This document shows positions 5,403 to 63,166 of a DNA stretch of 64,000 nt, piece after piece (the stretch's first letter is position 1; each line of letters starts with the position of its first letter). This DNA comes from Callorhinchus milii. Taxonomy: Eukaryota. The notes under the pieces are model-generated. The model did not search any database. It saw nothing but the letters and a program-made list of their open reading frames with translations, and was not told the DNA's origin. Made by a program: the position numbers and the translations under genes. The DNA is taken from the NCBI RefSeq assembly GCF_018977255.1, contig NW_024704743.1:24802001-24866000 (forward strand), in the 5' to 3' direction.

Positions 5403-5447
5403 CTGCTCCCCTGTGATTCCATTAAATTCGTTTACCCCTTCTTCACC
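5403..5447 (-). CDS. col6 triple-helix exon, [15 protein letters not shown]
   Basis: 45 bp; acceptor ctccacag, donor CAG|gtaat. Confidence 0.85.
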
Positions 5448-29400: not shown

Positions 29401-30034
29401 GTGTACTTCGATTTTCTGTTCTAAGCTTGAGACACTACCCTGCATGGAGGGCACTACATAAGTGCAAGATGTTGTTGTGAGTCTGTGCCTCATTGTTCTA
29501 TATTTGTTGTTCATGGCAAATATATTATAAGGATCTTGAAATGTCTGCCGAGTGCCATGAAATGATTATCATTATTTATATTATATTATCCAGTGTGATC
29601 ATTTCCAGTTATGTGCGGTTTCCTGGTAATTCAAGTATCTAATTCTCATTACCAATTTAGCTACCTTGTACTGTTCCTTCTCCAATGCCAAAATGCTACT
29701 CCTGTAATATGAAGACTGTAATACAAAACTTCCCTCAGTAAGATCTGCACCTGGTGAATGGTATACATAAGCAAAGTTGAGAAAGGCAGAGCGGTTGAAT
29801 GTGGGATGCTTGCACTGACGGCCAATAAATATCAATTGGTTTGGATTACAATGTTCAGTGATGTGATACTTATATTTACGCCATCTTTACATTTACATCT
29901 TTTTGAGGTTTCATTCTATTAAGTAAATCACTGCTGTATTTGAACAAAGTAGAAAGAGTACCAATCTGCTGAGACTCAGTGAAGCACAGATTTGCTGTGA
30001 TCAGGAAGGCAATGAGCACTTCAAACACACCCAT
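5403..30034 (-). CDS. COL6A6: Long-chain collagen VI gene (COL6A6-like, COL6A4/5/6 clade), 3'-partial. 17 coding exons: 29962-30034, 28192-28818, 26943-27530, 25641-26261, 21127-21747, 17639-18199, 15905-16465, 14911-15486, 12807-13376, 11743-12092, 11122-11200, 9960-10105, 8777-8869, 8339-8392, 7919-7990, 6609-6635, 5403-5447
   Basis: Signal peptide, eight single-exon VWA domains (DxxFLxDGSxS type), a split N1 domain ([12 protein letters not shown]), a [10 protein letters not shown] linker, then Gly-X-Y exons of 54/72/27/45 bp. All junctions are AG/GT (one GC) with compatible phases, giving 1888 codons. Exact orthology (A4, A5 or A6) is not resolved. Confidence 0.9.
6106..6459 (+). mobile_element. 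tRNA-Ala-derived SINE (long form)
   Basis: GGAGTCCTGTAGCTCAGTGGTTAGAGC head (A box), L2-like 3' tail, (ATT)n end. Confidence 0.85.
6609..6635 (-). CDS. col6 triple-helix micro-exon, GARGYQGEK
   Basis: 27 bp; acceptor ctttcag, donor gtaaat. Confidence 0.85.
6662..7837 (-). mobile_element. 5'-truncated L2 LINE
   Basis: [38 protein letters not shown], (GTT)n tail. Confidence 0.9.
7919..7990 (-). CDS. col6 triple-helix exon, [24 protein letters not shown] (contains the helix Cys)
   Basis: 72 bp of Gly-X-Y; poly-T acceptor; donor is AAG|gcaagg (GC). Confidence 0.88.
8339..8392 (-). CDS. col6 triple-helix exon, [18 protein letters not shown]
   Basis: 54 bp; acceptor ttgcag, donor gtaagt. Confidence 0.9.
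8777..8869 (-). CDS. col6 junction exon, [31 protein letters not shown]
   Basis: Manual translation; Cys-rich linker running into Gly-X-Y; 93 bp, phase 0-0. Confidence 0.92.
9065..9495 (+). mobile_element. Old Deu-domain-like SINE remnant followed by the 3' part of the tRNA-SINE
   Basis: GGCTCAGTTAGTAGC head, ATAATCCAGGCTGACAC core (antisense copy near 49700-49930), SINE tail 9340-9495. Confidence 0.45.
9960..10105 (-). CDS. col6 N1 domain exon c, [11 protein letters not shown]...[13 protein letters not shown]...LLTEI
   Basis: ORF 9933..10169; EFGRGF motif typical of long col6 chains; 146 bp, donor gtaagt. Confidence 0.9.
11122..11200 (-). CDS. col6 N1 domain exon b, [26 protein letters not shown]
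   Basis: Manual translation; VWA hallmark VIFTDG; 79 bp, phase 0-1. Confidence 0.88.
11743..12092 (-). CDS. col6 N1 domain exon a, [12 protein letters not shown]...ESGTNVK
   Basis: ORF 11602..12105; 350 bp, phase 1-0, donor AAG|gtaaga. Confidence 0.9.
12385..12672 (-). mobile_element. L2 3' fragment
   Basis: GGWAFS...LWNSIPQSL...[14 protein letters not shown] tail. Confidence 0.8.
12807..13376 (-). CDS. col6 VWA exon 8 (N2), [19 protein letters not shown]...
   Basis: ORF 12730..13383; 570 bp, phase 1-1, donor G|gtatgt. Confidence 0.92.
14911..15486 (-). CDS. col6 VWA exon 7 (N3), [20 protein letters not shown]...
   Basis: ORF 14903..15469; 576 bp, phase 1-1. Confidence 0.92.
15905..16465 (-). 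CDS. col6 VWA exon 6 (N4), [20 protein letters not shown]...
   Basis: ORF 15900..16529; 561 bp, phase 1-1. Confidence 0.92.
17639..18199 (-). CDS. col6 VWA exon 5 (N5), [20 protein letters not shown]...
   Basis: ORF 17604..18281; 561 bp, phase 1-1, donor G|gtaaga. Confidence 0.92.
18357..20300 (-). mobile_element. CR1 LINE, rearranged and degenerate
   Basis: [27 protein letters not shown], endonuclease [15 protein letters not shown]; (CTATGATT)n tail at 18357-18372. Confidence 0.88.
21127..21747 (-). CDS. col6 VWA exon 4 (N6), [21 protein letters not shown]...
   Basis: ORF 20987..21766; 621 bp, phase 1-1, donor G|gtgagg. Confidence 0.92.
22016..24452 (-). mobile_element. L2 LINE, about 2.4 kb, from the endonuclease C-terminus through RT to the 3' tail, frameshifted
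   Basis: [46 protein letters not shown]. Confidence 0.92.
24825..25100 (+). mobile_element. CR1 3' end fragment
   Basis: TTCTTTACCCAGAGAGTGGTGGAATGTGGAAC...GGGCTGAATGGCCTGTTTCTGTGCT. Confidence 0.7.
25641..26261 (-). CDS. col6 VWA exon 3 (N7), [20 protein letters not shown]...
   Basis: ORF 25561..26208 extended to the acceptor ttcacag; 621 bp, phase 1-1. Confidence 0.9.
26943..27530 (-). CDS. col6 VWA exon 2 (N8), [20 protein letters not shown]...
   Basis: ORF 26797..27567; 588 bp, phase 1-1, ag/gt boundaries. Confidence 0.9.
28192..28818 (-). CDS. col6 VWA exon 1 (N9), [21 protein letters not shown]...
   Basis: ORF 28136..28789; acceptor ttttgaag, donor CCAG|gtacga; 627 bp, phase 1-1. 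Confidence 0.9.
29962..30034 (-). CDS. Long-chain col6 first coding exon, signal peptide [24 protein letters not shown]
   Basis: ATG at 30034 in the context gtcaaaATGG. Hydrophobic core. Phase-1 donor G|gtactc matches the next exon. Acceptor ttcatctacag at 30060-30061 shows that untranslated exon(s) lie upstream. Confidence 0.85.
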
Positions 30035-30188
30035 TTTGACAGAACCTTGGGTTGTCTTCCTGTAGATGAATACAAATAAAAATCAGTTACAGACATGGGT
30101 CCAGATTTGACATTATTCTACAGTTTTAAATCCGTTTCTCATCCTTTATTGATGTAAATATAATCATCGCTCAATGATTCAAAGCATA

Positions 30189-31987
30189 AGAGGGGATTCA
30201 GATATGAAGAAAGACTTGAGAATTTTTTTTCAATATAGGGGAAATCTTATTGTGGAGGCAGAGGGCATGGCTGATGTGTTGAATGAGTACTTTGCATCTG
30301 TCTTCACAAAAGAAGTGGATGCACCAAATGCCACAGTATCGGAGGAGAAGGTAGAGGAAATGGATAGGATAAGTATAAACAGAGAGGAAGTACTGAAAAG
30401 GTTGACTGCGCTGAAGATAGATAAGTCGCCCGGTCTGGACGGATGGCAACCAAGATTACTATGGGAGGCACGGGTCAAATAGCGGAGGCTTTGGCTACAA
30501 TTTTTCAATCTTCGTTGGACACAGGAGTGGTGCCAGAGGACTGGAGAGTGGCCAATGTGACTCCCCTGTACAAAAAGGGACAGAAGGACAAACCTGGGAA
30601 CTACAGGCCAGTCAGCCTAACATCAGTAGTGGGGAAACTCCTGGAGACTATAATCCGGGACAGAATAAATCTTCACTTAGAAGAATATGGGTTAATTAGG
30701 GACAGCCAACATGGATTTGTTAAAGGCAAATCTTGTCTAACAAATCTAATAGAATTTTTCGATGAGGTAACGGAGAGGGTGGATAAAGGTAGTGCAGTTG
30801 ATGTAGTTTATATGGACTTTCAAAAGGCATTTGACAAAGTGCCACATGAAAGACTTGTAAGAAAGATAGAAGCCCATGGTATAAAAGGGACAGTGGCAGC
30901 ATGGATCCAGAACTGGCTGGGAGACAGAAAGCAGAGAGTTGTGGTGAACGGCTGCTTTTCTGACTGGAGGGAAGAGTACAGTGGCGTCCCCAGGGATCGG
31001 TATTAGGACCACTGCTCTTCTTAATATACATAAATGATCTGGACTTGGGTATAGCAAGCACCATTTCCAAGTTTGCGGATGACACAAAGTTAGGTAGGGT
31101 AGTAAACAGTGAGAAGGATAGAAGCCAACTGCAGGAAGACATAGACAGAATGGTAAAATGGGCAGACACATGGCAGATGAGTTTCAATATGGAGAAATGC
31201 GAGGTAATGCACTTTGGTAGAAAGAATGAGGGAAGGTAATATAGACTAGGTAATACAATCTTAAGGGGGGTAAAAGAACAGAGAGATGTAGGGGTGCAGG
31301 TAAATGAATCCTTGAAGGTGGCAGGACAGGTAAAGCTGTAAAAAGGGCATATGGGATACTAGGCTTTATAAATCGGGGCAGAGTACAAGAGTCAGGAGGT
31401 TATGATTAACCTATATAAAACACTGGTTAGGCCTCAGTTAGAATACTGCGCCCAGTTCTGGGCACCACACTATAGGAAGGATGTTAAGGCATTGGAAAGG
31501 GTGCAGAGGAGATTTACGAGGATGGTACCAGGAATGAGGGACCTTGATTATGAGGAAAGGCTAGAGAGGCTGGGATTATTCTCATTGGAGCAGAGAAGGT
31601 TACGAGGAGACCTAATAGAGGTTTTCAAAGTCATGAGGGGACTTGATAGGTTAGAAAGGGAAAAATTGTTTCCACTAGTGGGTGTGTCGGTGACTCGAGG
31701 TCACAGATTCAAAATAGTTTCTAAAAGAAGTAGAGGGGAGGTGAGAAGAATATTTTTCACGCAGCGAGTTGTTCGAATCTGGAATGCATTGCCTGAAAGG
31801 GTGGTCGAGGCCGAATCGATAACAACTTTTAAAAACGCGGTGGACGGGTATTTGAGGAGGACGGGTTTGTAGGGTTATGGGGAAAGGGCTGGGGAGTGGG
31901 ATTGACATTAATTTCTCTATTCAAAGAGCCGGCACAAACTCAATGGGCCGAATGGCCTCTTTTTGTGCTGTATGAGTCTATGATTCA
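30189..31987 (+). mobile_element. 5'-truncated CR1 LINE (RT plus 3' UTR), frameshifted
   Basis: ORFs 30443..31006 (PGNYRPVSLTS, YMDFQKAFDKVPH), 31045 (KFADDTKLG), 31402 (RPQLEYCAQFWAP); 15-bp target-site duplication. Confidence 0.95.
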
Positions 31988-32811
31988 CAGCATATACCAA
32001 AATGCATACTATATTTACAGTATTTTATGCATCTTCTATTGTTTAATATCAGTATCCATCATTGGAATATATATAACAGGTCTATACTAGATAGTTTCCT
32101 CTTATGCAATGTTGTAGCTGGCTCAGTAATAACAGAATGATCTAATTTCTATTAATTTATAGAATATACCAATGACCTGAAGGTGAACTGTGGGTCAGAT
32201 TGGATGAACTCTTAGATGGTTCTCGCAGAAGAAGAAAAACAGCTTGTTTTTACATTATTCATGTAACAATTGGAGCAGTGTACATTAAAATGTAGAGGAG
32301 ATTGAAGGGGCTCGATTTAAGTCAAAGGAGACTAACAGTAGGAACATAATTGAAAAGGTGAAGTAAATTTGGAAGAGAGTTTCACAGGAGTGAGCATGGT
32401 TGCTGAAGACTCAGCTTTCAATAGAACCTTAGAAAGGCCAGAAGTAGGCCATTCAGCCCAATAGTGGAGCAAAGAGATACAACTAGCAGAGGTCAAAGCA
32501 CAGAATGCAGGCTAGAAGATAAGGCTGTTGAAAATTTGATACAGAGTGGAGCAATGCCATGGAGGGATTTAAAAATAAATATGGAAGTACTGAAATTAAG
32601 CGTGGGACAAGGAGCCATTGGAATGTGACAAGAACAGAGGTGCACAAGTGCAGAATTTTGTATAAATCATGGGTTTAGTGTCCATATGTACATCATTGAC
32701 AATTAACTATTGCCCATTTTCAAGCTGAGCAGGACAAGACTTGAGTTTTGGATGAGTTGAAGTTTGTGAAGGGTGGAGCCAACTTAGCAGCCCAATAGGG
32801 AGAATATCTGA

Positions 32812-33005
32812 AATAATAATATTCATAATCCTTGCATTTGATATAGCGCCTTATCACGTCTTTGAGACGTCTCAAAGCGCTTCACAGAATATACTGTAAA
32901 GTGAACTGACTGTATATTTTGTAGGCAAAACCTGGTAGCCATTTGCGCACAGCAGTGTCCCACAAACAGTTGTGGATTGAGTGACCAATTTATTATTATT
33001 ATTTT
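32812..33005 (-). mobile_element. tRNA-SINE 3' half
   Basis: Reverse complement of the SINE tail. Confidence 0.8.
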
Positions 33006-33266
33006 TTCCCTAGATATGATTAAGGTATGGATAACAACAACATTGAATGGAGAATTTGATAAACATCTGGAGGGAAAAGGCTCAGAGAAAGAATAGGTAA
33101 TTGAGATATAGTTCTCTTCATGGAAGAGTTGATACCAGGCCAGACTTCTGGAGGATATCCCAAAGCATTTCACAAGATGAATAGCCTCTTTTCCAATGTG
33201 CTGAATGGCTTCATTCTGTATTTTGATTTTGTAAGCTTTCTATAAAGATTTCACCAGTGATGATAA

Positions 33267-33595
33267 AGTGTCCTGTAGCTCAGTGGTTAGAGCACTCGCT
33301 TTGCAAGCGAGAGACCTGAGTTCAATTCCAGGCAGAGGGCGAAACCTTGGGCAAGTTTCCTTACTCCACACAGAGCCTAATAATAATCCCTCCAAAACCA
33401 AAAACAATAATAAATTGGTCATTTTCAATCCATTACTGTTTGTGGGACATTGCTGTGCGCAATTGGCTGCCGCGTTTCGCCCACAAATATACAGTCAATT
33501 CACTTTACAGTATATTCTGTGAAGCGCTTTGGGACGTCCTCCCGACGTGAAAAGCGCTATATCAAATGCAAGGATTATTATTATTATTATTATTA
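33267..33595 (+). mobile_element. tRNA-SINE (short form)
   Basis: A/B box head and (ATT)n tail. Confidence 0.88.
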
Positions 33596-34489
33596 TGGCT
33601 CAAAGTTGCTAATATTACAGAGCTGTCTGGGCAACAAAGTAGATGTGTAGTTGAAGCTTAACTTAGGATCAAACAGAAACCTTCCCTAACTCCAACTTCA
33701 GCACAGTTAAAGAGGTTAATTAAATTTGAGTCAGAAGCACACTGGTGCTGGCAAGAATACTTAATGTCTGGCAACTTTCTATCCTCCTTCCATCAGCAAA
33801 ATATGCTAAAAAAAGAAATACACAGATTTCTTCATTAACTTACAGCAGAAAGCTCGATATCCACACTATTTGGGAACAGTTTTACTGCATATATTAAAAT
33901 AGTGTGGATTATTGTGCAGCCTCTCTTCATTATTCCTTTCTCAGATTCTGATAGCCTGAAGTTTAATTATTTCAGATTTAATATCATTTGGATGAATCTT
34001 CCTGAATCCACAGCAAAGTTTCAAAATCATCCTTTAAAAGATTACATCTAACAAGCGAGCTATGTGGAACAAATTTGTTTATCAATTAAACCAATTGCAA
34101 ATTCCCAAATTAATATAGGTCAATCACTGTCTGACAAAACCCCTTTAAGGGAGAAAAACTATTCTACAAAATTGGAAAGAGTGGGATCATAATAGTTCTA
34201 TAAGCCATGCTATAAGCCATCCAGGAAATTGTCCCACACAAACAAATTTCCTTGGATTCAGATGCCAGGAGAACAAATATTCAGCAATATGGAACTAACT
34301 GCAAGCTACATGTTCAAATGAATAATATCTGACTTTTCTAACCTTTTCTGTATCATCAAATCCTGCCAAAATAAGATTATTAGATTTACTTCATTAAGTA
34401 CAGTACTCAGCCCTTAATACCTGCACTATATGGGATCAGCCCAGTGTAGATATAAAAACTCTCCACATAAAATACAATGTGTAGTACAA

Positions 34490-34660
34490 TAATAATAATC
34501 CTAGCATTTGAAATAGCGCCATCGAGACGTTTCAAAACACTTCACAGAATATACTGTAAAGTGAATTGACTGCATATTTTGTAGGCGAAACCCGGCAGCC
34601 AATTGCACACAGCAGTGTCCTACAAACAGCCATGGCCTGAATGACCAAATTATTATTAGT
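34490..34660 (-). mobile_element. tRNA-SINE 3' half
   Basis: Reverse complement of the SINE tail. Confidence 0.8.
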
Positions 34661-34842
34661 ATTTATGAATGCATCTTTTAGTTAATACATAATGAATCCT
34701 ATTTATTTACTGTCCAAAAATACAAATTATATTGTCACTCTACAGTGCTGTTTTCTTTCTTTCTCTCAGATCCCCATCAGAGCACCACCTCTTCCCTAAT
34801 TACAGCAGTAGCCCTTCTTGCTCCATATATTCTTATATATTA

Positions 34843-35097
34843 AGTGAGACACCTGGGTTCAATTCCAGGCAGGGCGAAACCTTGGGCAAGTTTCCTTACT
34901 CCACACGTCTAATAATAATCCCTCCAAAGAAACAAAAAACAATAATAAATCGGTCATTAGCAATCCACAACTGTTGCTGTGCGCAATTGGCTGCTACGTT
35001 TTGCCCACAAATATACGGTCAATTCACTTTAGAGTCTATTCTGTGAAGCGCTTTGAGACGTCGAGAAGACGTGAAAAGCATTATATCAAATGCAAGG

Positions 35098-35128
<31 letters not shown>
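34843..35128 (+). mobile_element. tRNA-SINE (short form, 5'-truncated)
   Basis: B box GGTTCAATTCC and (ATT)n tail. Confidence 0.85.
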
Positions 35129-35130
<2 letters not shown>

Positions 35131-35959
35131 TGACTTTTTTTCTGTATTTTCTGTATTCTGAGATCACTTTGAATGGGCAAACTAAAAAATTTCACCTGAC
35201 AGGTAAAATACACCAATATACACGTGCAATAAATATTCTCAGGGGTGATGACAGTTTTGAAAGGGAGGGGTACCATTGTCGGGTTATGCATAAGACAAGA
35301 CAGATTTGAACCTCGGCTGAACGTCTCGTCCCGCGGTAGCATTGCTTTGTTGTAATCTCTCCATGGTGTAACTTTATAGTACTAATAAAGCTTGACTTAA
35401 CAGATTTTACCTAAAAGGAATGCTGGGTGACCTTGTTTGATATCTAACATCGTGCTGGAGGAAAGAGGAGGTTGACAATGTTACCTAGGCAGGGTGACAA
35501 GGGGCAGCTGGGTGGACAGCAACTACATCGGAATGGAATCAAGGGAGTAGGTGTCAAATTTCATGCAAGAGATGAGGAGATGAATGAGGGGGAGATGGGT
35601 TTGCAAGGTGTGAACAACAACAAAATACAACAAAATTGCATTTATAGAGTGCCTTTCACGTCGGCAGGATGTCCGAAAAGCGCCGAGGGTGTGCGAGTAG
35701 GAGAGGAAGGGAGAGGAAATGGAGGTAGCCAAGGCGATTTTATTAATTTTGGTTACCAGGAAGTCCAGGATATCCTCAAACTAGACGTTCCAGCATGAAG
35801 AATTGAAGCACTCCTCTGTACAACTCAACTTAGGAAAATTGAATTTCTTATCTGTCTTAGACAATCTATATTAATAACAACGTAATGTCTGTATGTCTGT
35901 CGGAGTTGGGCTGGTGGTGGGTGATGGTTGGCTTGGTAAGACCATGGGGTTTCCGGGAT

Positions 35960-37640
35960 CCAATATACACTAGGACAAAGGTTCCTGAATTGAGGACGAT
36001 ACTCTGGACCTCCCTCCACACCTTCAAACCTGTCTCCCCCTCCTCTCTCATCACCACTATAACCCACATGAAATCAACCACCAGTTCCCCTTGACCCCAT
36101 CCCTACCCCTCTCCTTATCTCCCAGCTCCACCTCCTTGCCCCTCTACACACTGACATCATAAACCTCTCTCTGTCCACTGGTGCTGTTCCCACTCCAGTA
36201 AAAACCGCCGTCATCACTCCTATCCTTAAAAAATCCTCCCTGAACTCATCTCTACTCCCAAACTACCGCCCCATCTCCAACCTCCCTTTCCTCTCCGTGG
36301 ACCTGGAATGAGTTGTTTCTTCCCAAATTCGCTCCTTCCTCTCCCGGCACTCCATTCACAAACCCCTCCAATCGGGTTTCCATGCCGCCCACAGGACAGA
36401 AATAGCCCTGGTCAAAGTGACAAATGACATTCTGTTCATCTGCGACCAGGGCTCCCTCAGCCTCCTCGTTCTCCTTGAACTCTCTGCTGCCTGCGACGTC
36501 GTCGACCACTCTATCCTCATCCACCATCTCTCCTCTCACCTCAACCTCCACGGCTCTGTCTTTGCTCCCCTCCTCTTGAATACCTATATGCTCCCTCTTG
36601 GTGACATCATCCGCAGACATGGGGTCAACTTCCACATGTATGCAGATGACACCCAACTGTACCTCTGTGCCTCAACAGTTCACTCCAGGACCACTGCTGT
36701 CCTGACAGAATGTTTGTCGGACATCAAGTCCTTGATGAGAGCTAATTTTCTTCAGTCAACAAAAACTACAAAATTACATTTATATAGCGCCTTTCATGTC
36801 AACAAGATCGAGGCTCTCCTGATTGGCTCCCGTCAGCGCCTCCTCACCTCAGGCGCTGACAGCATCACCATCCATGATTGCACACTCCACCTTACTAAGC
36901 CAGTCCAGAAGCTTGGGGTCTTGTTTGACCCTCAACTATCCTTTCTACACCACATCTGGGCCATGTCCCGCTCTGCCTTCCCCCACCTCTGCAATGTCGC
37001 CCGGCTCCGCCACTGTCTCACACCGTAGGCCGGCAAAACCCTCATCAAGCTTTCATTTCATTGAGGTTTGACTATGCAAGCTCATTGCTTGTCGGCCTCC
37101 ACAACTTCTCCCTCCACAGGCTGAAGATCATCCAGAACTCTGCAGTCCGCGTCCTCTCCCTCAGCAGGTTCTGTGACCATCCTCGTCCGACTCCACTGGA
37201 TTCCCATCACACAGAGGATACAGTTCAAGATCCTGGTCCTCACCTTCAAAGCTCTCCATGGTCTTGCTCCCACCTACCTCTACGACCTGCTAACCCCCTA
37301 CCATCCTGCTCGCTCCATCTAATCAGTGGGCTCCAGCCTGCTTCACGTCCCCCGCCTCGCTCACCCAACTATTGGCGGCTGGGCCTTCTGCCACTCTGCC
37401 CCCACCCTTTGGAACTCCATCCCGAGTCCCTCCACCTCATCCCCTCCCTTACCTCCTTCAAGACCCACCTCAAGACCCTCCTCTTTGACCGTGCTTTCAA
37501 TCTCCCTGCTTCCCCCATTGCCCTCCACCCTCCCCGATCCCTGACCCCCCAGCTCATGTCCGAAACTCTGTCTGTCCAGCGCCTTGGGACGTCCTCCTAA
37601 CGTTAAAGATGCTTTCCAAATATAATTTTGTTGTTGTTGT
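35960..37640 (+). mobile_element. L2 LINE, degenerate with internal deletions
   Basis: ORF 36417..37028 ([16 protein letters not shown]); 3' tail ...TTGTTGTTG. Confidence 0.9.
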
Positions 37641-38193
37641 TGGATCTGGCCAATGCAACCATTTTTGCAGACCACACAGAATATTTTATTATAGTCTGCA
37701 TTTTTCCTTTCAGTGGGTGTTTTCATTTATGCGTGGACCTCAGTTGTGATAATTGGTGTAAATCTACACTCTAAATTATTGCCCTCCTCTTCGTAAAAGT
37801 GGCATTTTTTCACAAAACAGATTGCAAATTGACAGGTGTCTGTTTGGTTTGGCTGAAGAGTTTCCCAAGGGCTGAGACTGGAAGGGCAGGTGTTAGCTCA
37901 GGGTAAGTTGAGTTGGATCAGTCAATGCGGCAAAATGTCTCCAGCAAAGAAGAACCAGCTCAAACCACAGCAATTTAGTGGATGAACTGTGAATGTAAGG
38001 TCTGGGACACTACCCTGTGTGAGGGACACTGTATAAACGCAAGGTGTTGTTGTTCTTGTTAAATATCGAGATAAGAGCAGGAGACTGTGGTTGCTCCAAG
38101 AAGGGAGAGCAAACAGATATAGAGGGGAGGAGAGTGAGTCATGGATGGAGATAAGTCTGAGGCAAGGTTGGAATGAGGAAATACAACATGAGT

Positions 38194-38582
38194 GGAGTCT
38201 TGTAGCTCAGTGGTTACAGCACTCGTCTTGCAAGCAAGAGACCTGGGTTTGATTCCCAGCAGGACGAAACGTTGGGCAAGTTTCCTTACTCCACACGCCT
38301 CTGTTTACCTAGCAGTAAGTAGGAACCCAGGTTGTTAGTTGATTGGCAGAATGTTTTTCTGGGGTTAATCATTCCTTCAAAAAAGAAATAAATCATAAAT
38401 TGGTCACCCAATCCACGACTGTTTGTGAGACACTGTTGTGCGCAATTGGTTGCCGTGTTTTACCCACAAAATATACAGTCAATTAATTTTACAGTATATT
38501 CTGTGAAGCACTTTGAGACAGCTCGAAGACATGACAAGGCACTATATCAAATGCAAGGATTAATATTATCATTATTATCATT
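38194..38582 (+). mobile_element. tRNA-SINE (long form)
   Basis: Full head-to-tail copy. Confidence 0.88.
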
Positions 38583-39019
38583 GCGAGCAAAATTGACAGG
38601 CATAACAAGAAAAGGGAAGTGGAGGATATTATTATGTACAAGGGAAACATGTCTAGAGGGGTCAAATAAAGAAAGCCCTCAGCAAGTATATTTAAAGTGA
38701 ATAGCAATGGTCAAAGAGAATGTTATACTACTGTGAATAAAATGAAGTAGGTGAAAGCAACAATACTCTGAATTAATAGTAATAGTAATGATTAACAATA
38801 GCTGGTGAACACGATGAAAATTAACCACAGTGATGAGCACAGTGATTACTCAAAATTTTGTTTTAGGGAATCGAAAATCTTTAAGACTATTATATTCTTA
38901 TTATTAATTTACTGAGATAGAATTGTAGATTATGTGAAACATTCCTGATAGCACATTAGGTAAGTGCACACAGAAAGACCCATGCAGTAAACATACATCC
39001 ATACATCTGTCCCTCCGAC

Positions 39020-39330
39020 CTCCTCACTCCCCATTCCACCACCTGGCAGCTCCGCTTGACTGGCACCGGCCTCCTGTTTGTCCCTCGCATCCTCCGTGGA
39101 GGTCAGTGGAGGTCGCACTTTCAGCCACTTCATCCGGAAGATATGGAACACTTTCTTTCAATCCCTCCGCTTTGCCCCCCCCTCTCCCGTTTTTCAAGTC
39201 CTGCCTGAAAACCTTCCTTTTCGACCGTGCTTACTGTCACCTCCCAACACCCATGTCGGAGTCACTGTTAAGCACTCTAAGACGCTACCCTGCATGGAGA
39301 CACCATATAAGTGCAAGTTTGTGTGGTGGT
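39020..39330 (+). mobile_element. Old L2 3' fragment
   Basis: GGRTFS...IWN...[13 protein letters not shown]. Confidence 0.65.
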
Positions 39331-39933
39331 ATGGAGAAATTAACTTCAATTTGCCCTTCCATTGCAAAGATGTCTTGACTGTAATATGATGCCCACATTT
39401 GCACATTGTGGGTAGTGCCAGAGCTGTGTAAATGTTCAGTATGACTTCTTGTGACTTATGTCCTTGCCCTGAAGCTGTACGTTCAAACATCATATTTTGT
39501 GAAAGTTAAAAGAACATGGAAATTACTTTTCCTTGACTTCAGGCTATTTTAAATCAATTTCCGAAAAGCCCCAGTGGTACTGAAAGCTGTAATGGTTTGT
39601 ATGACACATGATAGAAGAATGATACAAATGGTACAAGTTAATCCAATTTTATTAAACATTTCAAGCCCTACTTCTGCGAGCAGTAACATTTCATATACTC
39701 ACCAAATTATAAAATCAACCATATCAACCAAATTTGGTTGGTTCCAAATACATTCCTAGTGTACCCTTTCATTAAAAAAATCTGTGGGTTTCTCATTTTC
39801 TCCTTATTCTCCAGCTTCATTATGCTGTGGTCCACCATCTCTGGTTCCCTACCCACGTGGGCATTGTTTATGTGTTAGCCTTGACAATGAGCATCTGCTT
39901 CCCTGCCCCAAGTAAGCATTGTTCATGTGTGAC

Positions 39934-40297
39934 AATAATAATAATAAATTTCTTGCATTCGATAGGCACCTTAACACATCTTCGAGATGTCTTAAAGCGC
40001 TTCACAGAATATACTGCAAATTAAATTGACTGTATATTTTGTGGGAAAAACGCGGCAACCAATTGCACACAGCAGTGTCCCACAAACAGTCATGAATTGA
40101 GTGACCAATTTATTATTATTATTTTTTTTGAAGAAATTATTAACCCCCGGAAAAGCAATCCGCCAATCGACTAACAACCAGGTTCCTACTTACTGATAGG
40201 TGAACAGAGGCGTGTGGAGTAACGAAACGTGCCCAACGTTATCACCCTGCCAGGAGTCTACTTGTGAGGCGAGTGCTCTAACCACTGAGCTACAAGA
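39934..40297 (-). mobile_element. tRNA-SINE (long form)
   Basis: Reverse-complement full copy. Confidence 0.85.
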
Positions 40298-50984: not shown

Positions 50985-52438
50985 AATAATATAATAATCC
51001 TTGCATTTGAAAAAGTGCCTTATCACATCCTTTAGATGTCTCAAAGCGCTTCACAGAATATACCGTAAAATGAATTGACTGTATATTTTGTGGGTGATAT
51101 GCGACAGCAAATTGTCATGGATTGAGTGACAAAATTATTATATTTTAACAACAACAACAACAAGATTCCATTTATAAAGCGCCTTTCACGTCAGGAGGAC
51201 GTCCCAAGCCGCTGCACAGTTGGGTCATGACCCGAGCAGGGGGGAAATGGTCAGGGTGTGGGGAGGGGAGGGAGCGAGGAGGGGGGAAATGGTCAGGGTG
51301 AGGGGAGGGATGGGAGGGAGCGAGAAGGGGGAAGAGAGTCGAGAGGGGAGCTGAAGGCTCGGTCAAAGGGAAAACAGATTATTATCCACGGAAAAGCGAT
51401 TACCCCCACCAATCGATTAACAACCGGTTCCTGCACATCAAGTCTGGATGAGAGCTAACTTTGTTCAGTTGAACATCACCAAGACCGAGGCCATCCTGAT
51501 TGGCTCCATACCTCATGTGCTGACAGCATCACCATCCACGGATGCACACTCCACCTCACTGAGCCAGTCCAGAACCTTGGCGTCTTGTTTGACCCTCAAC
51601 TATCCTTTCTACCCCACATCCATGCCATGACCCGCTCTGCCTTCCCCCACCTCAGCAACATCACCCAGTTCCACCTCTGTCTTACACCGCAGGCTGCCGA
51701 GACCCTCATATACGCATTCATAACATCCAGGCTTGACTGTCCAAACTCCTTGCTTGTCGCCTCCCCAACTCCTCCCTCCAAAGGCTGCAGATCATCCAGA
51801 ACTCTGCAGCCCATGTTATCTCCCGCACCAGGCTCCATGATCCGATCACCCCCATCCTCACCCGACTCCACTGGATTCCCATCACACAAAGGATACAGTT
51901 CAAGATCCTGGTCTTCACCTTCAAAGCCCTCCATGGCCTTGCTCCCCCCTACCTCTGCAACCTCCTAACCCTCTAACATCCTACTCGCTCCCTCCACTCT
52001 GCTTCACGTCCCCCGCCTCGTCTGCCCCATCATTGGCAGGCGGGCCTTCTGCCACTCTGCCCTCACCCTCTGGAACACCATCCCACAGTCCTTCTGCCTT
52101 GCCCCCTTCCTTACCTCCTTCAAGACAAATCTCAAGACCCTTCTCTTCAACCATGCTTTCGATGACCCCACTTCCCCCTCCCTGTCGTCCATCCTCCCTA
52201 ATCCCAATCCCCAGCTCGGATCCAAAACACTGACTGTCCAGCACCTTGGGACATCCTCCTGACGTGAAAGGCGCTATATAAATGTAATTTTGTTGTTGGT
52301 GTTGTTCCTACTTACTGCTAGGTAAATATAGGCGTATGGAGTAAGGAAATTTACCTAACTTATCACCCTGCCCGGGAATCAAACTCAAGTCCTCTCGCTT
52401 GCGAGGTGAGTGCTCTAACTAATACTCTACAGGACTCC
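50985..52438 (-). mobile_element. tRNA-SINE split into three pieces by two L2 insertions
   Basis: SINE tail 50985-51146, middle 51378-51432, head 52304-52438. Confidence 0.8.
51433..52303 (+). mobile_element. 5'-truncated L2 nested in the SINE
   Basis: [26 protein letters not shown]; flanked by GTTCCT on both sides. Confidence 0.88.
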
Positions 52439-52659
52439 ACAATCTGAAATGTAATTTGTAACCTGCATGTTTGCTAACCACCGGAGTTCAACTACGTGGT
52501 CTTTGAGTGTGCCCACATGTCACTACTATGAATTTGTTTTCTAGTCCATGTTTGCCTTATAATCACCTACAGTTTTATCACTTTGAACAACCTGCTATTA
52601 CATTTGCATTTGTGGTGACAAGCATTGAATATTTTGGGAACTTTATACTTTAATCAGTG

Positions 52660-53280
52660 TGGAGCCAGTGTGGAACCTTGTTGCCTGTTCAACTCTCAAC
52701 TGTCCTTTAAACCTCACATCCATGCTCAGACCCACTAACTTTCTACGCCAACTCTCTGCTCAATGGATTATCCAAATCTTACCTCCACAAGCTGCAGAAT
52801 ATCCAGAACTCTGCAGATCATGTTCCTTCCCACCTTAACTCTAACCCCGATCGATCCTCGCTCAAAACCACTGGCTCCCAATCCCCAGCAGATTAAGTTC
52901 AAGATCATCGTCCTCGCTTTTAAATTCTTCCATGGTCTAGCCCAACCTATGACCTTCTCAAGCCCTTCATTTGGTGGGCGCCAGCCTGCTGTGTCCCGCC
53001 CTACCCATCCCACCAATGGTAGTCGGGCTTTCAGCCTATCTGCCCCCACTTTCTGGAACTCCATCCTAGAGTCCCTACTAATTGACCCATCCCTTGCCTC
53101 CTTCAAGGCCTATCTCAATACATTCCTCTTTGACTGCACCTTTGGTCATCTTTCCTCCATCTGTTCCCTTGTCCCCCACCCCGCTTAGCTCCCACTCCCA
53201 GTTTGGGTGGAAATCCTGGACTGTGCAGTGCCTTAGGATGTCCTTCTCATTTGAAAGATGCTGAACAAATGTGTTGTTAT
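52660..53280 (+). mobile_element. Old L2 3' fragment
   Basis: IKFKIIVLAFK...SRAFSLSAPTFWNS...FKAYLNTFLF. Confidence 0.75.
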
Positions 53281-55339
53281 ATCAATAAAATTAGTTTATA
53301 AGTGCATTTTGGACCTTACTGCAAACATCTACAGTAGTACATCAATTGGATTGAATGGATCGCTGTTTCAAAGACTCAGTGGACTGAATGGGCTTCTTCT
53401 GTGCTGTTCTGCAGTTCTGTAGGATCCATAAATAAGACATGTTTGCTTGCTTCTTAAAATAAATGGAAAGAAAACATTTGCACTAAAACAGATTACCAGC
53501 AATGGGTTGTGCTGCTCAAATAATTCAGAGATGTTAACATTATTCAGTTGACAAGGGATGTGCATTTATTCATCACGAATTAGTTTGATTAATCTAGACA
53601 TGAAGCAAAAAACTCAAGCTAATGTGAATTGACTTTTTTTTGGAAGGAGAGGGAAAAGACCAACTTCTCCCTCAGAGGAAATAACTAACACATTGGATTA
53701 ATGCTGAACATGGAGGAAACAGGAAATTAAGTGAAGCAGCATAAAATGTTAATTTTTTAGCTTTCAGTGATTATTAAGGTTATTTAGATTTATATGTTTC
53801 TAACGCCTAGTCATATCTTCCTGTATGGGTTTAATTAAAAAAGTTCTGCCAGTGGGCTAAATGCACCATTTGAAATAATTATTAAGGAGTGGATCCAATC
53901 AATTTAGATAAGGCTGCAAATTCCAAGATTATTAATCTTTTGAACCACATCCGTTTTAAATCAGGCCTGGATCAAGATTTAATATAGTAGCTCAGTACAT
54001 TCTTGACTGTTGCTTTCGCAATTAAACAAAATTCTTTATGTGAAATGGTTGAGACTGTATTATCTTTTAAAAGGGAATTAAGTAAATATCTAAAAAGGAT
54101 TAATTATAATAATCCCTGCATTTGATATAGTGCCTTATCACATCATTGAGATGTCTCAAAGCTCTTCACAGGATATACTGTAAAGTGGATTGACTGTAGA
54201 CTTTGTAGGTAAAAAGCGACAGCCAGTTGTGCACAGCAATGTCCCACAAACAGCCATGGAAGGAGTGATCAATTGTATTTGAGGGATTGTTGGCCAGGAC
54301 ACTAGGAGAAACTCCTTTCTATTTTAGGATAGTGCAATGGGAAATATGAAAAGAAATGGCGAAAAGGCAAGAACATGGAACTAAATGCTTAGCTCTTTCG
54401 GAAAACCAGCACAAAGGACCAAATAGTGGTGTATCTCCATAAATCTCTACGATTCTTTATATCTTACTGATAATTGATAATGTGAATCATCTATATTAAC
54501 ATTTTTGACTGATCAGAGTTATCCAGGGAATATTCTACAATGTATGTGTGTGTGAAAATGTAACATAACTGATGTATGAAATGTATTGAATGAATCTGAA
54601 GTTGTTTTCAATCTAAGTGTCGGATTCTGGTGGTATGCAAATATTAATAATGTTAGCCACCTGTTTGCCATCTGTAACATGGCCAATACAGATAGCGATG
54701 AGACAAAATATTATGATTTGACCATTACAACAAGCAGAATCTATAACTTATATTATTATTCAAATTCAAATTATTAATTGAAAAAGAAGAATAATGGTTA
54801 TGAAAAATCTACAGGAGATTGGGATTAGATTAAGTGGCTCATGTGGAGAAAAACCCTAATGGAGACTTGATGGGCCAAATGGCCTGGTTTGGTAATGTAA
54901 CATGATGATTCCATCATGTAATGCAGAGTGATTGATGTCGATTTTGAAAATCTACATGCTGCTAGCCTAATTTGTAGATATGTATGTTATTTAGATGAAT
55001 TTTGGGTAAACAATCATCATTCATTTTATCTATAGTTTTTGCCTATGCCTCTTTCAATAGATAACCCTAGTCTTTTGGGGTCCTGTACATTCTTACGTTT
55101 TATATTCTAGAAAGAAATGATTTGACGCAGTGTTAAGAACATCTGGGTAAACGGAGTTGAGGTACAGATCACACATGATAACAATAATCCTTGCATTTGA
55201 TATAATTAAATCGTCGAGACGTCAAAGCGCGATGATCTAATGGAATAGTGTAACTAGCTCAAGGGGCTGAATGGCCTACACCTGTTCCTATGTTCCTACC
55301 TAAAGTAACATTATTGACTTTCCCAGAAGTGTAACCTGT

Positions 55340-56200
55340 ATCAACAACAACAAAAACAAAATTACATTTGTATCATTTGTATAGCAGCTTTCAGGTCGGG
55401 AGGACATCCCAGGGCGCTGGACAGACAGAGTTTCGGACCCAAGCTGGGGGTCAGTGTCAAGGGGTGTGGAGTGCAGTGGGGGAAGCAGGGAGATTGAAAA
55501 CACGGTCGAAGAGGAGGATCTTGAGATGGGGCTTGAAGGAGGCAAGGGAGGGGGCGAGGCAGATGGATTTCCAGAGGGTGGGGGCAGTGTAGCAGAAGGC
55601 CTGGCCACCAAGAGTGGGGTGAGCAAGGTGGGGGGGGACATGAAGCAGGCAGGAACCCGCTGAGCAGAGGGAGCAAGCAGAATGTTAGGGGGTTAGGAGG
55701 TTGCGGAGGTAGGGGGAGCAAGACCATGGAGGGCTTTGAAGATGAGGACCAGGATCTTGAACTGTATCCTCTGTGTGATGGGAAGCCAGTGGAGTCGGGC
55801 GAGGATGGGAGTGGTAGGGTCACAGAACCTGGTGCGGGAAAGGACGCGGGGTTCAGAGTTCTGGATGATCTGCAGCCTATGGAGGGAAGAGTTGGGGAGG
55901 CCGACAAGCAGTAAGTTTGCGTAATCAAACCTCAATGTAATGATGGCGTATATGAGGGCTTTGGCGGCCTGCGGTGTGAGACAGTGTCGGAGCCGGGCGA
56001 CATTGCAGAGGTGAAGGAATGCAGAGCGGGTCATGGCGCAGATGTGGGGTAGAAAGGATAGTTGAGGATCAAACAAGACCCCAGGGTTCTGGACTGGCTT
56101 AGCAAGGTGGAGTGTGCAACCATGGATGGTGATGTTGTCAGCGCCTGAGGTGAGAAGGCGCTGACGGGAGCCAATCAGGAGAGCCTTGGTCTTGTTGACG
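55340..56200 (-). mobile_element. 5'-truncated L2 LINE
   Basis: ORF 55693..56076 [11 protein letters not shown]...LHWLPITQRIQFKIL. Confidence 0.9.
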
Positions 56201-57807
56201 TGAATCAGGAACTAAAGAGTACTCAAGGCATCACTGTCACTTACTTATCCCAAGTTCTCCCATTCCAGCCCGCAAATAGATTGCATTTTAAATGATGCGC
56301 CCAATTACTGCAACCGCTCCGTCTATTTGTGCAAAATAAACCACCTAATTGAAAAATACTTTCAAACGGGAATTGCACAGAAGATATGCATAATGGCAAA
56401 CACACAGCAAGGAGTGAGTGTTTGTCATGCTAGTGTACACTGAAGGCTAGTTTAATTCCATTTATTGTCGTGTAGTTTCACCCCATGCTGGTTTAAACAA
56501 CATGAAGGAAAAAATACATACTTTGTCATTCTTCCATTTAGAGCTGGTTAAGAATTTCCATTGGGACATCCATGTCCATACCTGTATGATTCCGTAGACC
56601 CTTGGAAAGATCAAGAATCACATACATTAATTGCTCTGTCATGTGAAATAGATTTCATTACATGGAACAATTATTCTGTCATATGGAATATCTGACGTCA
56701 AGCCTAGAATTATTAAAGATACTTTATTATTTAGATATGTCAATGAAAATTATCGAATTACCTAGTAATTAACTAATTTGCAAATTTGCAATATATAAAA
56801 ATTGTAACATCTACTTTATTCTATTATAACATGTTTTTTTCTCTAGAGGATAAAACACTGAACTTGAAAATGTGCTTTTATACATAGAGGTGTATAAAAA
56901 CTTAAATGGGATTGAAATACTTTAGAATACAGCAAAACAATGAAACAAGAGAACATAGATTTAAGGGAAATGTAAAGGGAAATTTCAGGACAGATACCAG
57001 GTAATTTTGTTTACACAGAAGGTAATTAATACCTTGCCATGAAAGGTGATAGAAGACAGAATACTGGATTAATTTAAAACATAGCTTGATGCTGTGATAG
57101 GGAAATGGTAGGGTAGGTGTTCTAGGCAGATGAGATGTGTTGGGAGAAAGGTGAGTGTTTGGTGTTTGCCCTACTTGCAAAACCTGCAAAAACTTACATT
57201 CCTCATTCCTGCAAAAAAGACACATAGAAAGCATAACAAACAAGATGTCTGCTGTTTCAGGTTAAAAAGGGGGAAATCTATGTGCCTACTTCCACCTTTA
57301 AACTATATCACTGTTGATGTTCCTACAATTTCAATCCTTCAAACTGGCAAAAGCTAAACTACTTTGATTACCTATTTATAGCTTTACAGTTTTCCATGAG
57401 CATCACTGTCAAACAAAACAAACGTTGGAGGCAGTTAGAATAATTGAAAATCTGCAATTTATTTTTGAATGTTAATAAATAAAAAGGAATAAATATTCCG
57501 AAGTATTACTGGGTCAAAGGAGAAAAGAGAGAGAGGGAGTTAATTTCATATCACTATTCAACCCAACAAAAAACCCAACCCAACAAGAAACTTTACCACA
57601 AGCAAGTCATACTCAACTCTCCACAAATAAAAGTTTAAGAATCAAGCCAGCATCCTCTCCACCATATTGCTAAGTGTTGTGGTTGAGTGTTGCTTTTGTT
57701 GTAAGTGTTTTTGTTGTCGTTAGAGTAGTGAGTGTTGTTAGTATTGTTAATATTGTTATAGACGTAAGTGTTGCTGTTGTAAGTGTTGTTATTGGTGTAA
57801 GTTGTTT

Positions 57808-58175
57808 GGAGTCCTGTAGCTCAGTGGTTAGAACACTCGTCTTGCAAGCGAGAGACTAGGTTCAATTCCCGGCGAGGCAAAATGTTGGGCATATTTCCTT
57901 ACTCCACGTACCTCTGTTTACAAAGCAGTAAATAGGAACTCGGCTGTTAGTCTATTGGCAGCTCACTTTTCCAGGGGTAATAATTCCTTCAAAAGATTAA
58001 CAATAATAAATTGGTCACTTCGATCCACGACTGTTTGTGGGACACTGCTGTATACTGCTGCAGCATTTCGCCCACAAAAAATACAGTCAATTCACTTTAC
58101 AGTATGTTCTGTGAAGCGCTGTGAGACAGCTTGAAGATGTGATAAGGCGTTATATCAAATCCAAGGATTATTTAT
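57808..58175 (+). mobile_element. tRNA-SINE (long form)
   Basis: Full copy inside the GTT tract. Confidence 0.88.
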
Positions 58176-58701
58176 TATATTTATTATATGTGTTGTTATT
58201 GTTACAGTTGTAAATGTTGTGGTTGTAAGTGTTGTAAGAGTTGTTATTGTTGTAAGAGTAGTGGTTGTAAAGTATTATTGTTCTAAGTGTTATTGATATA
58301 AGTGTTGTGGTTGTAAAATATTGTTGTAAGTGTTGGAATAGTTGTTATTGTAAGTGTTGCAAGAGATATTATTGTTGGAAGTGTTGTGGTTGTAAAGTAT
58401 TATTGTTGTAAAGTGTTATTGTTGGAAGTGTTGTGGTTATATGTGTTGTTCAGTTGTATTATTGTAAGTGTTGTTGAGAAATATAATCGTAAGTGTTGCT
58501 GTTGTAAGTGATATAATTGTAAGTATATAGTTGTAAGTGTTATAAATGATATAGTTGTGAGTGTTACTGCTGTAAGTGATATAGTTGTGCGTTGTTATTC
58601 TTGTAAGTGATCTAGTTGTGAATGTTGTTGTTATAGTTGTAAGTGTTATAGTTGTAAGTGTTACAGTTGTAAGTGCTGTAAATGTTATTGTTGTCAGTGA
58701 T

Positions 58702-58995
58702 ATAATAATAATAATCCTTGCATTTGATATAGAGCTTTTCACGTCTTCTCGACGTCTCAAAGCACTTCACAGAATAGACTGTAAAGTGAATTGACCGTAT
58801 ATTTGTGGGCAAAACACAGCAGCCAATTGCGCACAGCAGTGTCCCACAAACAGTCTTGGATTGAAAATGACCAATTTATTATTGTTTTGTTTTTTGGAGG
58901 GATTATTATTCGGCGTGAGGATTAGGAAACTTGCCCAAGGTTTCGCCCTGTCTGGAATTGTACCCAGGTGTCTCGCTTGTAAGGCGAATGCTCTA
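58702..58995 (-). mobile_element. tRNA-SINE (short form)
   Basis: Reverse-complement full copy inside the GTT tract. Confidence 0.88.
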
Positions 58996-60439
58996 ACCAC
59001 TGAGCTACAGGTCTCCAGGTGTATATAGGTGTAAGTGTTATTGTTGTAAGTGATACAGTTGTTGTAAGTAATATAGTTGTGAGTGACATAGTTGTAAGTG
59101 ATATGGTTGTGAGTGCTGTTGTTGTTGTAAGTGATATAGATGTGAGTGTTATTGTCATTGAAATAGATGTGATTGCTATTGTTCTTGTTGTAGGTGATAT
59201 AGTTGTGAGTGTTATTGGTATTGTTGTAAGTGATATAGTTGTGTGTTGTTATGATATAGTTGTGTGTAAGTGATATACTTGTGAATGTTGTTGTTATTGG
59301 TATAAGCGTTATATTTGTAAATGTTATAGTTGTAGGTGTTGTTGTAAGTGTTATTGTTGTCAGTGATAAAGGTGTAAGTGTTATTGTTGTGATATAATTG
59401 TTGTTGTGAGTGACATAGTTGTAAGTGATACAGTTGTGAGTGCTGTTGTTGTTGTAAGTGATATAGATGTGAGTGCATTTTTGTTGTTGTTAGTGATATA
59501 GATGTGAATGTTGTTATTGTTAGTGATATGGCTGTGAGTGTTGTTGTTGTTAGTGCTGTGGCTGTTGTTGTTGTTAGTGCTGTGGCTGTTGTTAGTGCTG
59601 TGGCTGTTGTTGTTAGTGCTGTGGCTGTTGTTGTTAGTGCTGTGGCTGTTGTTGTTGTTAGTGCTGTGGCTGTTGTTAGTGCTGTTGTTGTTGTTAGTGC
59701 TGTGGCTGTTGTTAGTGCTGTGGCTGTTGTTAGTGCTGTGGTTGTTGTTAGTGCTGTGGCTGTTGTTAGTGCTGTGGCTGTTGTTAGTGCTGTGGCTGTT
59801 GTTAGTGCTGTGGCTGTTGTTAGTGATGTGGCTGCTGTTGGTGGTGGTGCTGTGGCTGTGGGTGTTGTTAGTGCTGTGGTTGTTGCTGGGCTGTGGCTCC
59901 GGGTGTTGTTAGTGCTGTGGCTGTTGCTGGGCTGTGGCTGTGGGTGTTGTTAGTGCTGTGGCTGGGCTATGGCTGGTGTTGGGCTGTGGCTGTGGCGCTG
60001 GCTCAGGAGGTGGGTGTGTTGTTGTGGCTGTGTGTTGGGCTGTGGCTGGTGTTGGGCTATGGCCGTGTGTGTTGTTGTGGCTGTGGCTGGTGTGTGGCTA
60101 TGGCCGTGTGTGTGTTGTTGTGGCTGTGGCTGGTGTGTGGCTATGGCTGTGTGTGGGGCTGTGGCTGGTGTTGGGCTGTGGCTGGTGTGGCGCCATGGCT
60201 GTGTGTGGGGCTGTGACTGGTGTTGGGCTGTGACTGTGTGTGTGGGGCTGTGGCTGGTGTTGGGCTGTGGCTGTGTGTGTGGCTGTGGCTGTGTGTGGGG
60301 CTGTGTGTGTGGCTGTGACTGGTGTGGGGCTGTGGCTGGTGTGGGGCTGTGGCTGTGTGTGGGGCTGTGGCTGTGTGTTGGGCTGTGGCTGTGTGTTGGG
60401 CTGTGTGTGGGGCTGTGGCTCAGGAGGTGGGTGTGCTGA

Positions 60440-60804
60440 GCTGGAGCCCCGCCTCGCAGTGTCGGGGCGGCAGGTGAGCGCTGGGCTCCTGAGCAGCTCC
60501 AGCATCGCGGAGCCAGGTAGATGTCGGGCGGCGGCTGGTAGAAACCGGTGAGAAACTGCACCGATCTTTAATTAATTTTGCGCATGAACTTCTTTAACGC
60601 CCGAAAGAAAACAACGCAGGGTATATCCTGTCGAGGCACATGAGCAATTACTTTTTTTTGTGTGTGTGCAAATAACTTTGCAGGTTTAATTCTTTATGCA
60701 ATGTCCCGAGGACAACTAATAATAATGATTTGTTTCTTTCTGGGACCTAGGCAACATATTGACCTTCGGGGGTGAAAATACAAACTCTTGGGAAATGTAT
60801 AAAA
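60440..60804 (+). promoter_or_regulatory. Candidate COL6A1-like promoter: CpG-rich patch with GC boxes, plus TATAAAA
   Basis: CCCCGCC 60447-60453, GGGGCGG 60464-60470, GGGCGG 60526-60531, TATAAAA 60798-60804; about 200-560 bp upstream of the ATG. Confidence 0.45.
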
Positions 60805-61007
60805 GTTGCTGCTTTACAGAAAATACCACTTAACATGTATATGTTTGATACAGAACATTTCTTCTTCTGCAAAGTCTCCCAGCGGTGTACTGACCTGACC
60901 GCATGTTCTGTTTTTTCTTTAATGTTTAAGTCATTGTCGGTCTGAGTGGTCACAAAAATAAAGATCTCGCATTTGGAAGCAACACGCAGAAAAAAAACAC
61001 CTTGAAG

Positions 61008-63166
<2,159 letters not shown>

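Follow-up and report, generated by a model that had tools for sequence, protein, structure and literature searches.

Here, we describe a second alpha1-type gene of collagen VI in the chimaera Callorhinchus milii. It lies in a 64,000-nucleotide stretch of the 992-Mb genome (NCBI RefSeq assembly GCF_018977255.1, contig NW_024704743.1, hereafter scaffold C2; C2:24802001-24866000, free of N), to which we refer as the window. We read this COL6A1-like gene, a1L, as an intact, spliced second COL6A1 that arose before chimaeras and bony vertebrates split, and whose product is predicted to assemble preferentially with that of a second COL6A2 gene (a2L) and with alpha4/5/6-type long chains; our probability for this reading is roughly 60%. 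The a1L ATG at 61008 (plus strand) faces that of an alpha4/5/6-type long-chain gene at 30034 (minus strand). The earlier note on the window, made from its letters alone, had placed the two diverging start codons about 31 kb apart, and this ATG-to-ATG distance holds.

What kind of gene is a1L? Its first four coding exons lie in the window:

61008..61095, plus strand: coding exon 1, signal peptide, followed by a GT donor; corresponds in alignment to residues 1-29 of the sturgeon-group a1L protein
61199..61328, plus strand: exon 2, start of the N1 von Willebrand factor A (vWA) domain, placed by spliced alignment
61935..62135, plus strand: exon 3, N1 vWA domain, sharing 53% identity with its canonical a1 equivalent on scaffold C6
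62974..63133, plus strand: exon 4, N1 vWA domain; 31 further coding exons follow past the window

Joined, these exons amount to 579 nt and encode the 193-aa a1-like peptide recognised earlier, including DVYILLD and [15 protein letters not shown]. The gene continues past the window to C2:24890647 with the helix, coiled coil, C1 and C2. A spliced alignment guided by the sturgeon-group ortholog yielded 32 exons, and two 27-nt helix exons and a 9-nt micro-exon were added by direct search, giving a model with 35 coding exons, 34 of 34 introns of the GT-AG type and an open frame of 1012 aa. With one N-terminal vWA domain, a triple helix and two C-terminal vWA domains, the layout is that of an alpha1-type short chain; the helix exon sizes equal those of the a1 gene on C6, the two 27-nt exons included, and the best PDB match of the last exon is alpha1(VI) of the human/bovine type (9GTU_A, 9HAN_A; E-value 1.7e-47 versus 1e-16 for alpha2). 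Within the helix, which spans 335-336 aa in collagen VI short chains (PMC3950771), Cys89 (human Cys345) is present and glycine occupies every third position over residues 1-120 except position 37. Ile596 and Ile600 are found in the chimaera protein and in all 14 usable a1L rows (of 16). The motif following the coiled coil reads CSSC in the chimaera (two of three cysteines kept) and CSCC in 12 of the 14 usable ortholog rows, and the DxSxS motif of C2, the contiguous part of the metal ion-dependent adhesion site, reads DGSTS at residue 823. Since Ile596/Ile600, Cys89 and the C2 DxSxS motif are all kept, a1L would be expected to behave as an alpha1 chain.

Transcription of the gene and its predicted splicing follow from an exon-exact contig and exon-only read depth in two sequencing runs, X1 and X2, which stem from different studies. 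We aligned run contigs over a1L exons 5-16. A 2554-nt contig of X1 matches exon 5 exactly, and in six repeat-free bins the X1 depth closely followed the exon-only expectation (observed/expected: 4.46/4.52, 1.64/1.61, 2.63/2.63, 1.97/2.05, 2.30/2.31 and 1.31/1.35); six intron-only bins were empty, and the remaining bins were swamped by repeats. For X2, depth agreed with the exon-only expectation in five bins. These runs, and a third termed X3, were taken as RNA by guess, backed by their exon-restricted, spliced contigs, with no a1L-bearing run recorded as RNA. In Logan, full-length sturgeon-group a1L occurs on 3.5-kb contigs.

Searching the genome with a1L exon 3 returned four strong loci: the exon itself, C6:18.05 Mb (53% identity), C2:16.71 Mb (47%) and C6:18.13 Mb (44%). 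The two loci on C6 are the canonical COL6A1 and COL6A2 in tandem, the former matching the UniProt C. milii COL6A1 entry exon by exon, while the locus at C2:16.71 Mb is a second COL6A2, a2L, 8 Mb from the window. Elsewhere on C2, one exon agrees at 100% identity with a UniProt protein of C. milii, the elephant shark. There is thus no single COL6A1 in this genome, and the second COL6A1 paralog suspected in the earlier note is borne out: the two a1-type genes, in the window and at C6:18.05 Mb, are 48% identical, and in a tree the window gene falls into a clade of its own (support 99/99), outside the canonical a1 clade that contains the C6 gene. At 63.5% identity, a1L is closer to its sturgeon counterpart than to the a1 of its own genome (48%). 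The a2L gene, which had been missed before, strengthens the idea of a second heterotrimer. As a side observation, when compared with its UniProt C. milii counterpart, the last exon of the C6 COL6A1 (C6:18100540-18100580) shows a one-base frameshift in an A run, which probably reflects an error in the assembly.

The earlier note had set this paralog against the relic of an ancestral cluster of linked short and long chains, yet the two options prove compatible. COL6A3 also lies on C6, and the genome has four HOX9 loci, one on C2 and one on C6; HOX-bearing chromosomes are described as copies of one proto-vertebrate chromosome in the accessible part of PMC8302630. Because both of these HOX9-bearing scaffolds hold an a1, an a2 and one or more long chains, the chromosome before duplication would already have linked short and long chains. 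This comparison of paralogous scaffolds covered the collagen VI and HOX9 families. C2 may be HOXA-type and C6 HOXD-type, a comparison of homeodomains with PDB not being decisive.

When did the duplications occur? In a careful tree of the C1-C2 region, built from 32 rows chosen for spread, four clades emerged, namely a1L (99/99), a1 (96/99), a2L (100/99) and a2 (100/98), and a quick tree of 58 rows gave the same four groups. Because each clade spans the chimaera and bony vertebrates, both duplications would be older than the jawed-vertebrate radiation and, judged by these trees, predate the chondrichthyan-osteichthyan split. They likely stem from whole-genome duplication. Long branches within the cyclostome clade suggest that lampreys apparently have at least two divergent alpha1-type chains.

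The distribution of the two paralogs was read from the best 120 of 402 a2 matches and the best 150 of 1198 representatives, so that absences are provisional. Among these, a1L was found in sterlet, other sturgeons, paddlefish, bowfin, alligator gar, reedfish, herring, Astyanax, Prochilodus, chum salmon, coelacanth and nine frog genera, and a2L in bichir, tarpon, two eels, Prochilodus, lake trout, coelacanth and twelve frog genera; six of the ten lineages with either paralog had both. Among the 244 proteins from word searches, at least 15 were a1L and at least 19 a2L. The matches listed included no named a1L or a2L from an amniote, shark, ray or percomorph, although canonical a1 rows came from nine elasmobranch species and dozens of amniotes. 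Seven frog a1L models comprise 404-433 aa and C1-C2 only, as compared to 1003 aa in Hyla, reflecting either truncated annotation or real helix loss; a2L is full length there.

Could the arrangement be an assembly mis-join, or a1L a recent, chimaera-specific duplicate of COL6A1? A 2.7-kb low-complexity array sits just upstream of a1L (the repeat at 57.7-60.4 kb to which the earlier note had pointed as a possible mis-join, and whose arrays are real). The orthologs in many bony vertebrates and the separate clade already largely refute a recent duplicate, however, and the 264 kb around the window contain no N. The gene order on C2 is PIK3R4, three long chains (+, -, -), a1L (+), CAPN7 (+) and SH3BP5 (-), and the a1L of sturgeon likewise adjoins calpain-7, its gene model fusing the a1L end to it. 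We take the 5' part of human COL6A4 to abut CAPN7 and PIK3R4 to follow COL6A6; with CAPN7/SH3BP5 and PIK3R4 presumably flanking the two halves of the split human locus, the chimaera flanks argue against a mis-join. The human COL6A4 gene is split: its 5' part lies at 3p24, and 3q22 is the site of COL6A5/A6 (accessible part of PMC3189202). SH3BP5, CAPN7 and COL6A4P1 are listed together in the accessible part of PMC5423597. We therefore regard both artefact and recent duplication as highly improbable.

Linkage in other species gives a similar picture. The a1L row of sterlet reports a source contig of the same size as that of an alpha-6-like chain, and in five of the six frogs with both paralogs the a1L and a2L rows report equally sized source contigs. 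In the chimaera, a2L adjoins SDHA, the gene to which it is fused in a gene model of bichir. It is CAPN7, not COL6A2, that follows a1L; tblastn found no a2-like match in the 12.8 kb between them, nor did the 47.8 kb preceding the C6 a1 or the 89 kb preceding a2L yield a collagen VI remnant. With a1 next to a2 on C6 and a1L next to a long chain on C2, a long-a1-a2 cluster that was broken differently in each copy would be the simplest ancestor. As for the synteny proposed earlier, PIK3R4 does stand beside the C2 long chains and COL6A2 beside the C6 a1, but no PCBP3-like KH-domain match lies next to the C6 pair, the nearest KH-domain matches on C6 being at 14.95-14.98 Mb. The exons directly past the C6 COL6A2 (8420-8668 and 4209-4478, in separate stretches) had no Pfam match; they may belong to an SF3B1-like gene.

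With which chains would a1L assemble? According to the accessible part of PMC12354898, collagen VI trimerises via a cysteine-rich coiled coil, to which alpha1 contributes Ile596/Ile600 and alpha2 the small valines 594/598, and V594I is listed as a possibly pathogenic human variant. In a2L, position 594 is Ile in all 18 usable rows (of 24); canonical a2 has Val there in 79 of its 81 usable rows, from 101 in total. We propose that a chromosome with a1, a2 and one long chain was, very probably, duplicated, giving rise to a1-a2-a3 on C6 and a1L-a2L-a4/5/6 on C2. With similarly high confidence, a1L would trimerise like a1 via its Ile596/Ile600 coiled coil and be secreted as disulphide-linked tetramers. 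Chain choice would favour a1L together with a2L, a step towards which we lean with much less assurance. In amniotes, in all likelihood, the two short paralogs would have disappeared, so that alpha4-6 are left with a1 and a2 as partners. It is the joint retention of the paralogs and the fixed Ile594 of a2L that lead us to prefer an a1L-a2L-alpha4/5/6 trimer, and a1L may form 1:1:1 heterotrimers, tetramers and beaded microfibrils.

A number of observations weigh against this reading. Four cyclostome rows form a clade of their own, in a three-way fork with a1 and a1L, which leaves the duplication undated between the first and second rounds of genome duplication. Four of the ten lineages have one paralog only among the matches listed: a1L in acipenseriforms, holosteans and herring, a2L in tarpon plus eels. 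The a1L and a2L rows of Ascaphus report source contigs of different size, and most frog a1L models (404-433 aa) come without the helix. X1 and X2 contain a1L but no contig on the four a2L exons examined, with only X3 containing both, though missing contigs do not equal missing expression. Mammalian alpha5 and alpha6 assemble with ordinary a1/a2 (accessible part of PMC12354898), so alpha4/5/6-type chains have no need of a1L or a2L. The putative second heterotrimer is proposed from co-retention and the Val594-to-Ile change. Lesions specific to the chimaera, which we turn to below, also weigh against the reading.

Alternatively, a1L might be a functional, ancient but interchangeable paralog that replaces a1 alongside either alpha2 and any long chain, and is kept for other tissues or stages. 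The identity of Ile596/Ile600 and helix Cys89 in a1L and a1 would fit such exchange, as would the two of three RNA-type runs with a1L and no a2L contigs and the four lineages with a single paralog. We nevertheless consider it unlikely, given the fixed Ile594 in a2L and the absence of both paralogs from the amniote, elasmobranch and percomorph rows listed and from zebrafish, for which the accessible part of PMC6934817 gives a single col6a1 and col6a2; such joint loss is expected under mutual dependence.

The wear of the chimaera chains bears on another alternative. Outside the chimaera, five full-length a1L rows and 14 a2L rows keep every glycine over helix residues 1-120; in the chimaera, residue 37 is Ser in a1L (in the assembly reading, one base from a Gly codon) and His in a2L, which has two glycine losses, and the a1L junction is CSSC instead of CSCC. 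The a2L exon carrying Gly37His ends in a GC-AAAA donor, confirmed in the DNA run X5, and at C2:16704640-16705580 (minus strand) a 223-nt X3 contig joins the 66-nt exon to the first 27-nt exon, skipping the 54-nt exon at C2:16705525-472 and the 45-nt exon at C2:16704987-943. The 99 nt skipped in this one contig of one run correspond to the 33 helix residues 13-45. The long chain of the window has Val at Gly28, a2L and the long chain have further helix interruptions outside residues 13-45, and another alpha6-like row is interrupted at positions 10 and 22 (among the first 18 rows). Such wear may be matched relaxation in co-assembling chains, or early decay. As a sign of co-assembly, the matching glycine loss would be weak evidence, because one extra a1L interruption has a chance of about 1 in 10 of falling into the 33 skipped residues and interruptions occur elsewhere too.

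Is the second set of the chimaera, then, decaying, that is, transcribed but forming no normal microfibrils, as a step toward a loss apparently complete in sharks and rays? Lesions unique to the chimaera at residues kept in orthologs (Gly37Ser and the loss of two junction cysteines in a1L, Gly37His and exon skipping in a2L) point that way, as does the lack of a1L among the rows listed from the nine elasmobranch species with canonical a1. On the other hand, the 35 a1L exons contain neither stop nor frameshift and all splice sites are canonical, the chimaera a1L branch (0.38) is within the range of other a1L rows (0.08-0.51), and the a2L skip is in frame and keeps Cys89; we hold decay to be quite improbable. 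Going beyond the preferred a1L-a2L-alpha4/5/6 trimer, it is possible, though doubtful, that most non-amniote jawed vertebrates possess a second, self-selecting collagen VI of this composition from an early genome duplication, and that the chimaera a2L has become a short-helix chain lacking residues 13-45 whose partners tolerate glycine loss in that stretch. In people, in-frame deletions and glycine changes within helix residues 13-45 cause dominant Ullrich muscular dystrophy.

The minus-strand long chain occupies much of the window, the remainder of the gene lying to the left of it:

29962..30060, minus strand: first coding exon, signal-peptide-like (29962-30034), ATG at 30034, with an acceptor upstream
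9936..28843, minus strand: nine N-terminal vWA exons, the last split over two exons; Pfam VWA match of 202 bits for 28139-28843
5403..8827, minus strand: first five triple-helix exons (51, 54, 72, 27 and 45 nt), with Cys50, Gly28-to-Val and Gly73-to-Glu

The vWA exon at 11605-12135 had no Pfam match, and since an acceptor precedes the ATG exon, a non-coding exon would lie further upstream. The best representatives of the long chain are 'alpha-6(VI)-like' proteins. With multiple N-terminal vWA domains, helix Cys50 and a CXCC (CPCC) coiled-coil motif, the gene classifies by sequence as alpha4/5/6-type, closer to alpha4-6 than to alpha3. A long-chain C1 exon has matches in four genes, three of them at C2:24.64-24.78 Mb and the fourth at C6:13.13 Mb, the best matches of the latter being, after one unnamed row, named alpha-3 rows.

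Four side observations concern these long chains. The third long-chain gene on C2 (C2:24585000-24640000, plus strand) is arranged head-to-tail after PIK3R4 and tail-to-tail with the second, inverted relative to the other two. The second (C2:24725000-24755000) has an extended, apparently repeated vWA array of at least ten vWA exons, and in its helix Glu replaces Gly at position 19. The C6 COL6A3 (C6:13094000-13104500) includes six near-identical tandem vWA exons, which either expanded recently within the gene or are a repeat made by the assembly. Finally, a long GC-rich tandem array in a long-chain intron (window 2500-4900) generates spurious 500-aa open frames.

Between the two genes, the window holds the following:

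30061..60439, no strand: intergenic remnants of long and short interspersed elements (LINE and SINE), from repeat, Pfam, Rfam and tblastn scans
about 58.2-60.4 kb: low-complexity arrays within this stretch, directly before the a1L side
60440..61007, plus strand: possible non-coding 5' exon of a1L, predicted from a donor-like site at 60474, with an acceptor-like one at 60930 upstream of the ATG

Of the intergenic bases, 49% are repeated two or more times in the DNA retrieved for the analysis. Two of six intergenic open reading frames given to Pfam matched RVT_1, the other four having no match, and we read the six tRNA-like Rfam matches between the two ATGs as SINE heads. That no other protein-coding gene was found between the pair, as had been noted, agrees with these reverse-transcriptase remnants and tRNA-like matches being all that was found; no intergenic tblastn match was obtained with any of 408 fetched proteins, which excludes relatives of these proteins only, not small unrelated genes or non-coding exons. 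Because acceptor-like splice sites precede both ATG exons (window 30060 and 60930), the true start sites may be closer together than 31 kb. A bidirectional CpG-island promoter was considered and is unsupported, the four windows with a GC content above 0.5 and a CpG observed/expected ratio above 0.6 all being repeats.

Compared to COL6A1, a1L shares the N1-helix-C1-C2 order, 35 coding exons, Cys89, Ile596/Ile600 and the C2 DxSxS motif. It differs in forming a separate clade, with 48% identity to its own a1 and 44-48% to the canonical a1 of shark, sturgeon, chicken and echidna; in facing a long chain head-to-head and lying upstream of CAPN7, whereas canonical a1 is upstream of COL6A2; and, in the chimaera, in Gly37Ser and CSSC for CSCC. 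The six-chain collagen VI of mammals, as described in the accessible parts of PMC12354898 and PMC3189202, combines a1 and a2 with one of a3-a6 and thus has the same three chain classes. Shared as well is a cluster of long chains next to PIK3R4, with CPCC in the coiled coil. Mammals have one a1-type and one a2-type gene, whereas the chimaera has two of each, with a full set on each of two scaffolds, and the number of N-terminal vWA exons is nine in the long chain of the window but seven in mammalian alpha4-6. Zebrafish col6a4a/col6a4b (accessible part of PMC6934817) are likewise extra collagen VI chains in a fish, but go back to a carp-specific long-chain duplication, while in the chimaera it is the short chains that were duplicated, in a far older event.

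Database entries named 'collagen alpha-1(VI) chain-like' or 'alpha-2(VI) chain-like' (XP_007887970.1, XP_058878704.1, XP_005994625.1) are these genes or their orthologs; the labels are automatic, without orthology or pairing, and the chimaera entries comprise a 214-aa fragment for a1L and 426 aa for a2L. A literature search, subscription papers not covered, found no paper describing a second collagen VI short chain. The term COL6A does not occur in a supplement file of PMC13450315, a paper on an ohnolog database, though the database itself may list such pairs, and the col6a4 synteny supplement of PMC6934817 may show some of these neighbours. The genes are real, extra members of a known family, with a second heterotrimer a plausible product.

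Collagen VI is described as comprising six chains, with alpha1 and alpha2 obligatory (accessible part of PMC12354898). Our data suggest that the ancestor of jawed vertebrates had eight chain types, and the alpha4-6 cluster would be the one third that remains of a duplicated a1-a2-long set, which would account for its origin. Knock-outs of col6a1 or col6a2 may be buffered in frogs, salmonids and cavefish, whereas in zebrafish they would not. The a2L chains fix Ile594, the very residue listed as a possibly pathogenic human variant in that source, and together a1L and a2L offer a natural test of coiled-coil chain selection, a question left open in the 2025 structure.

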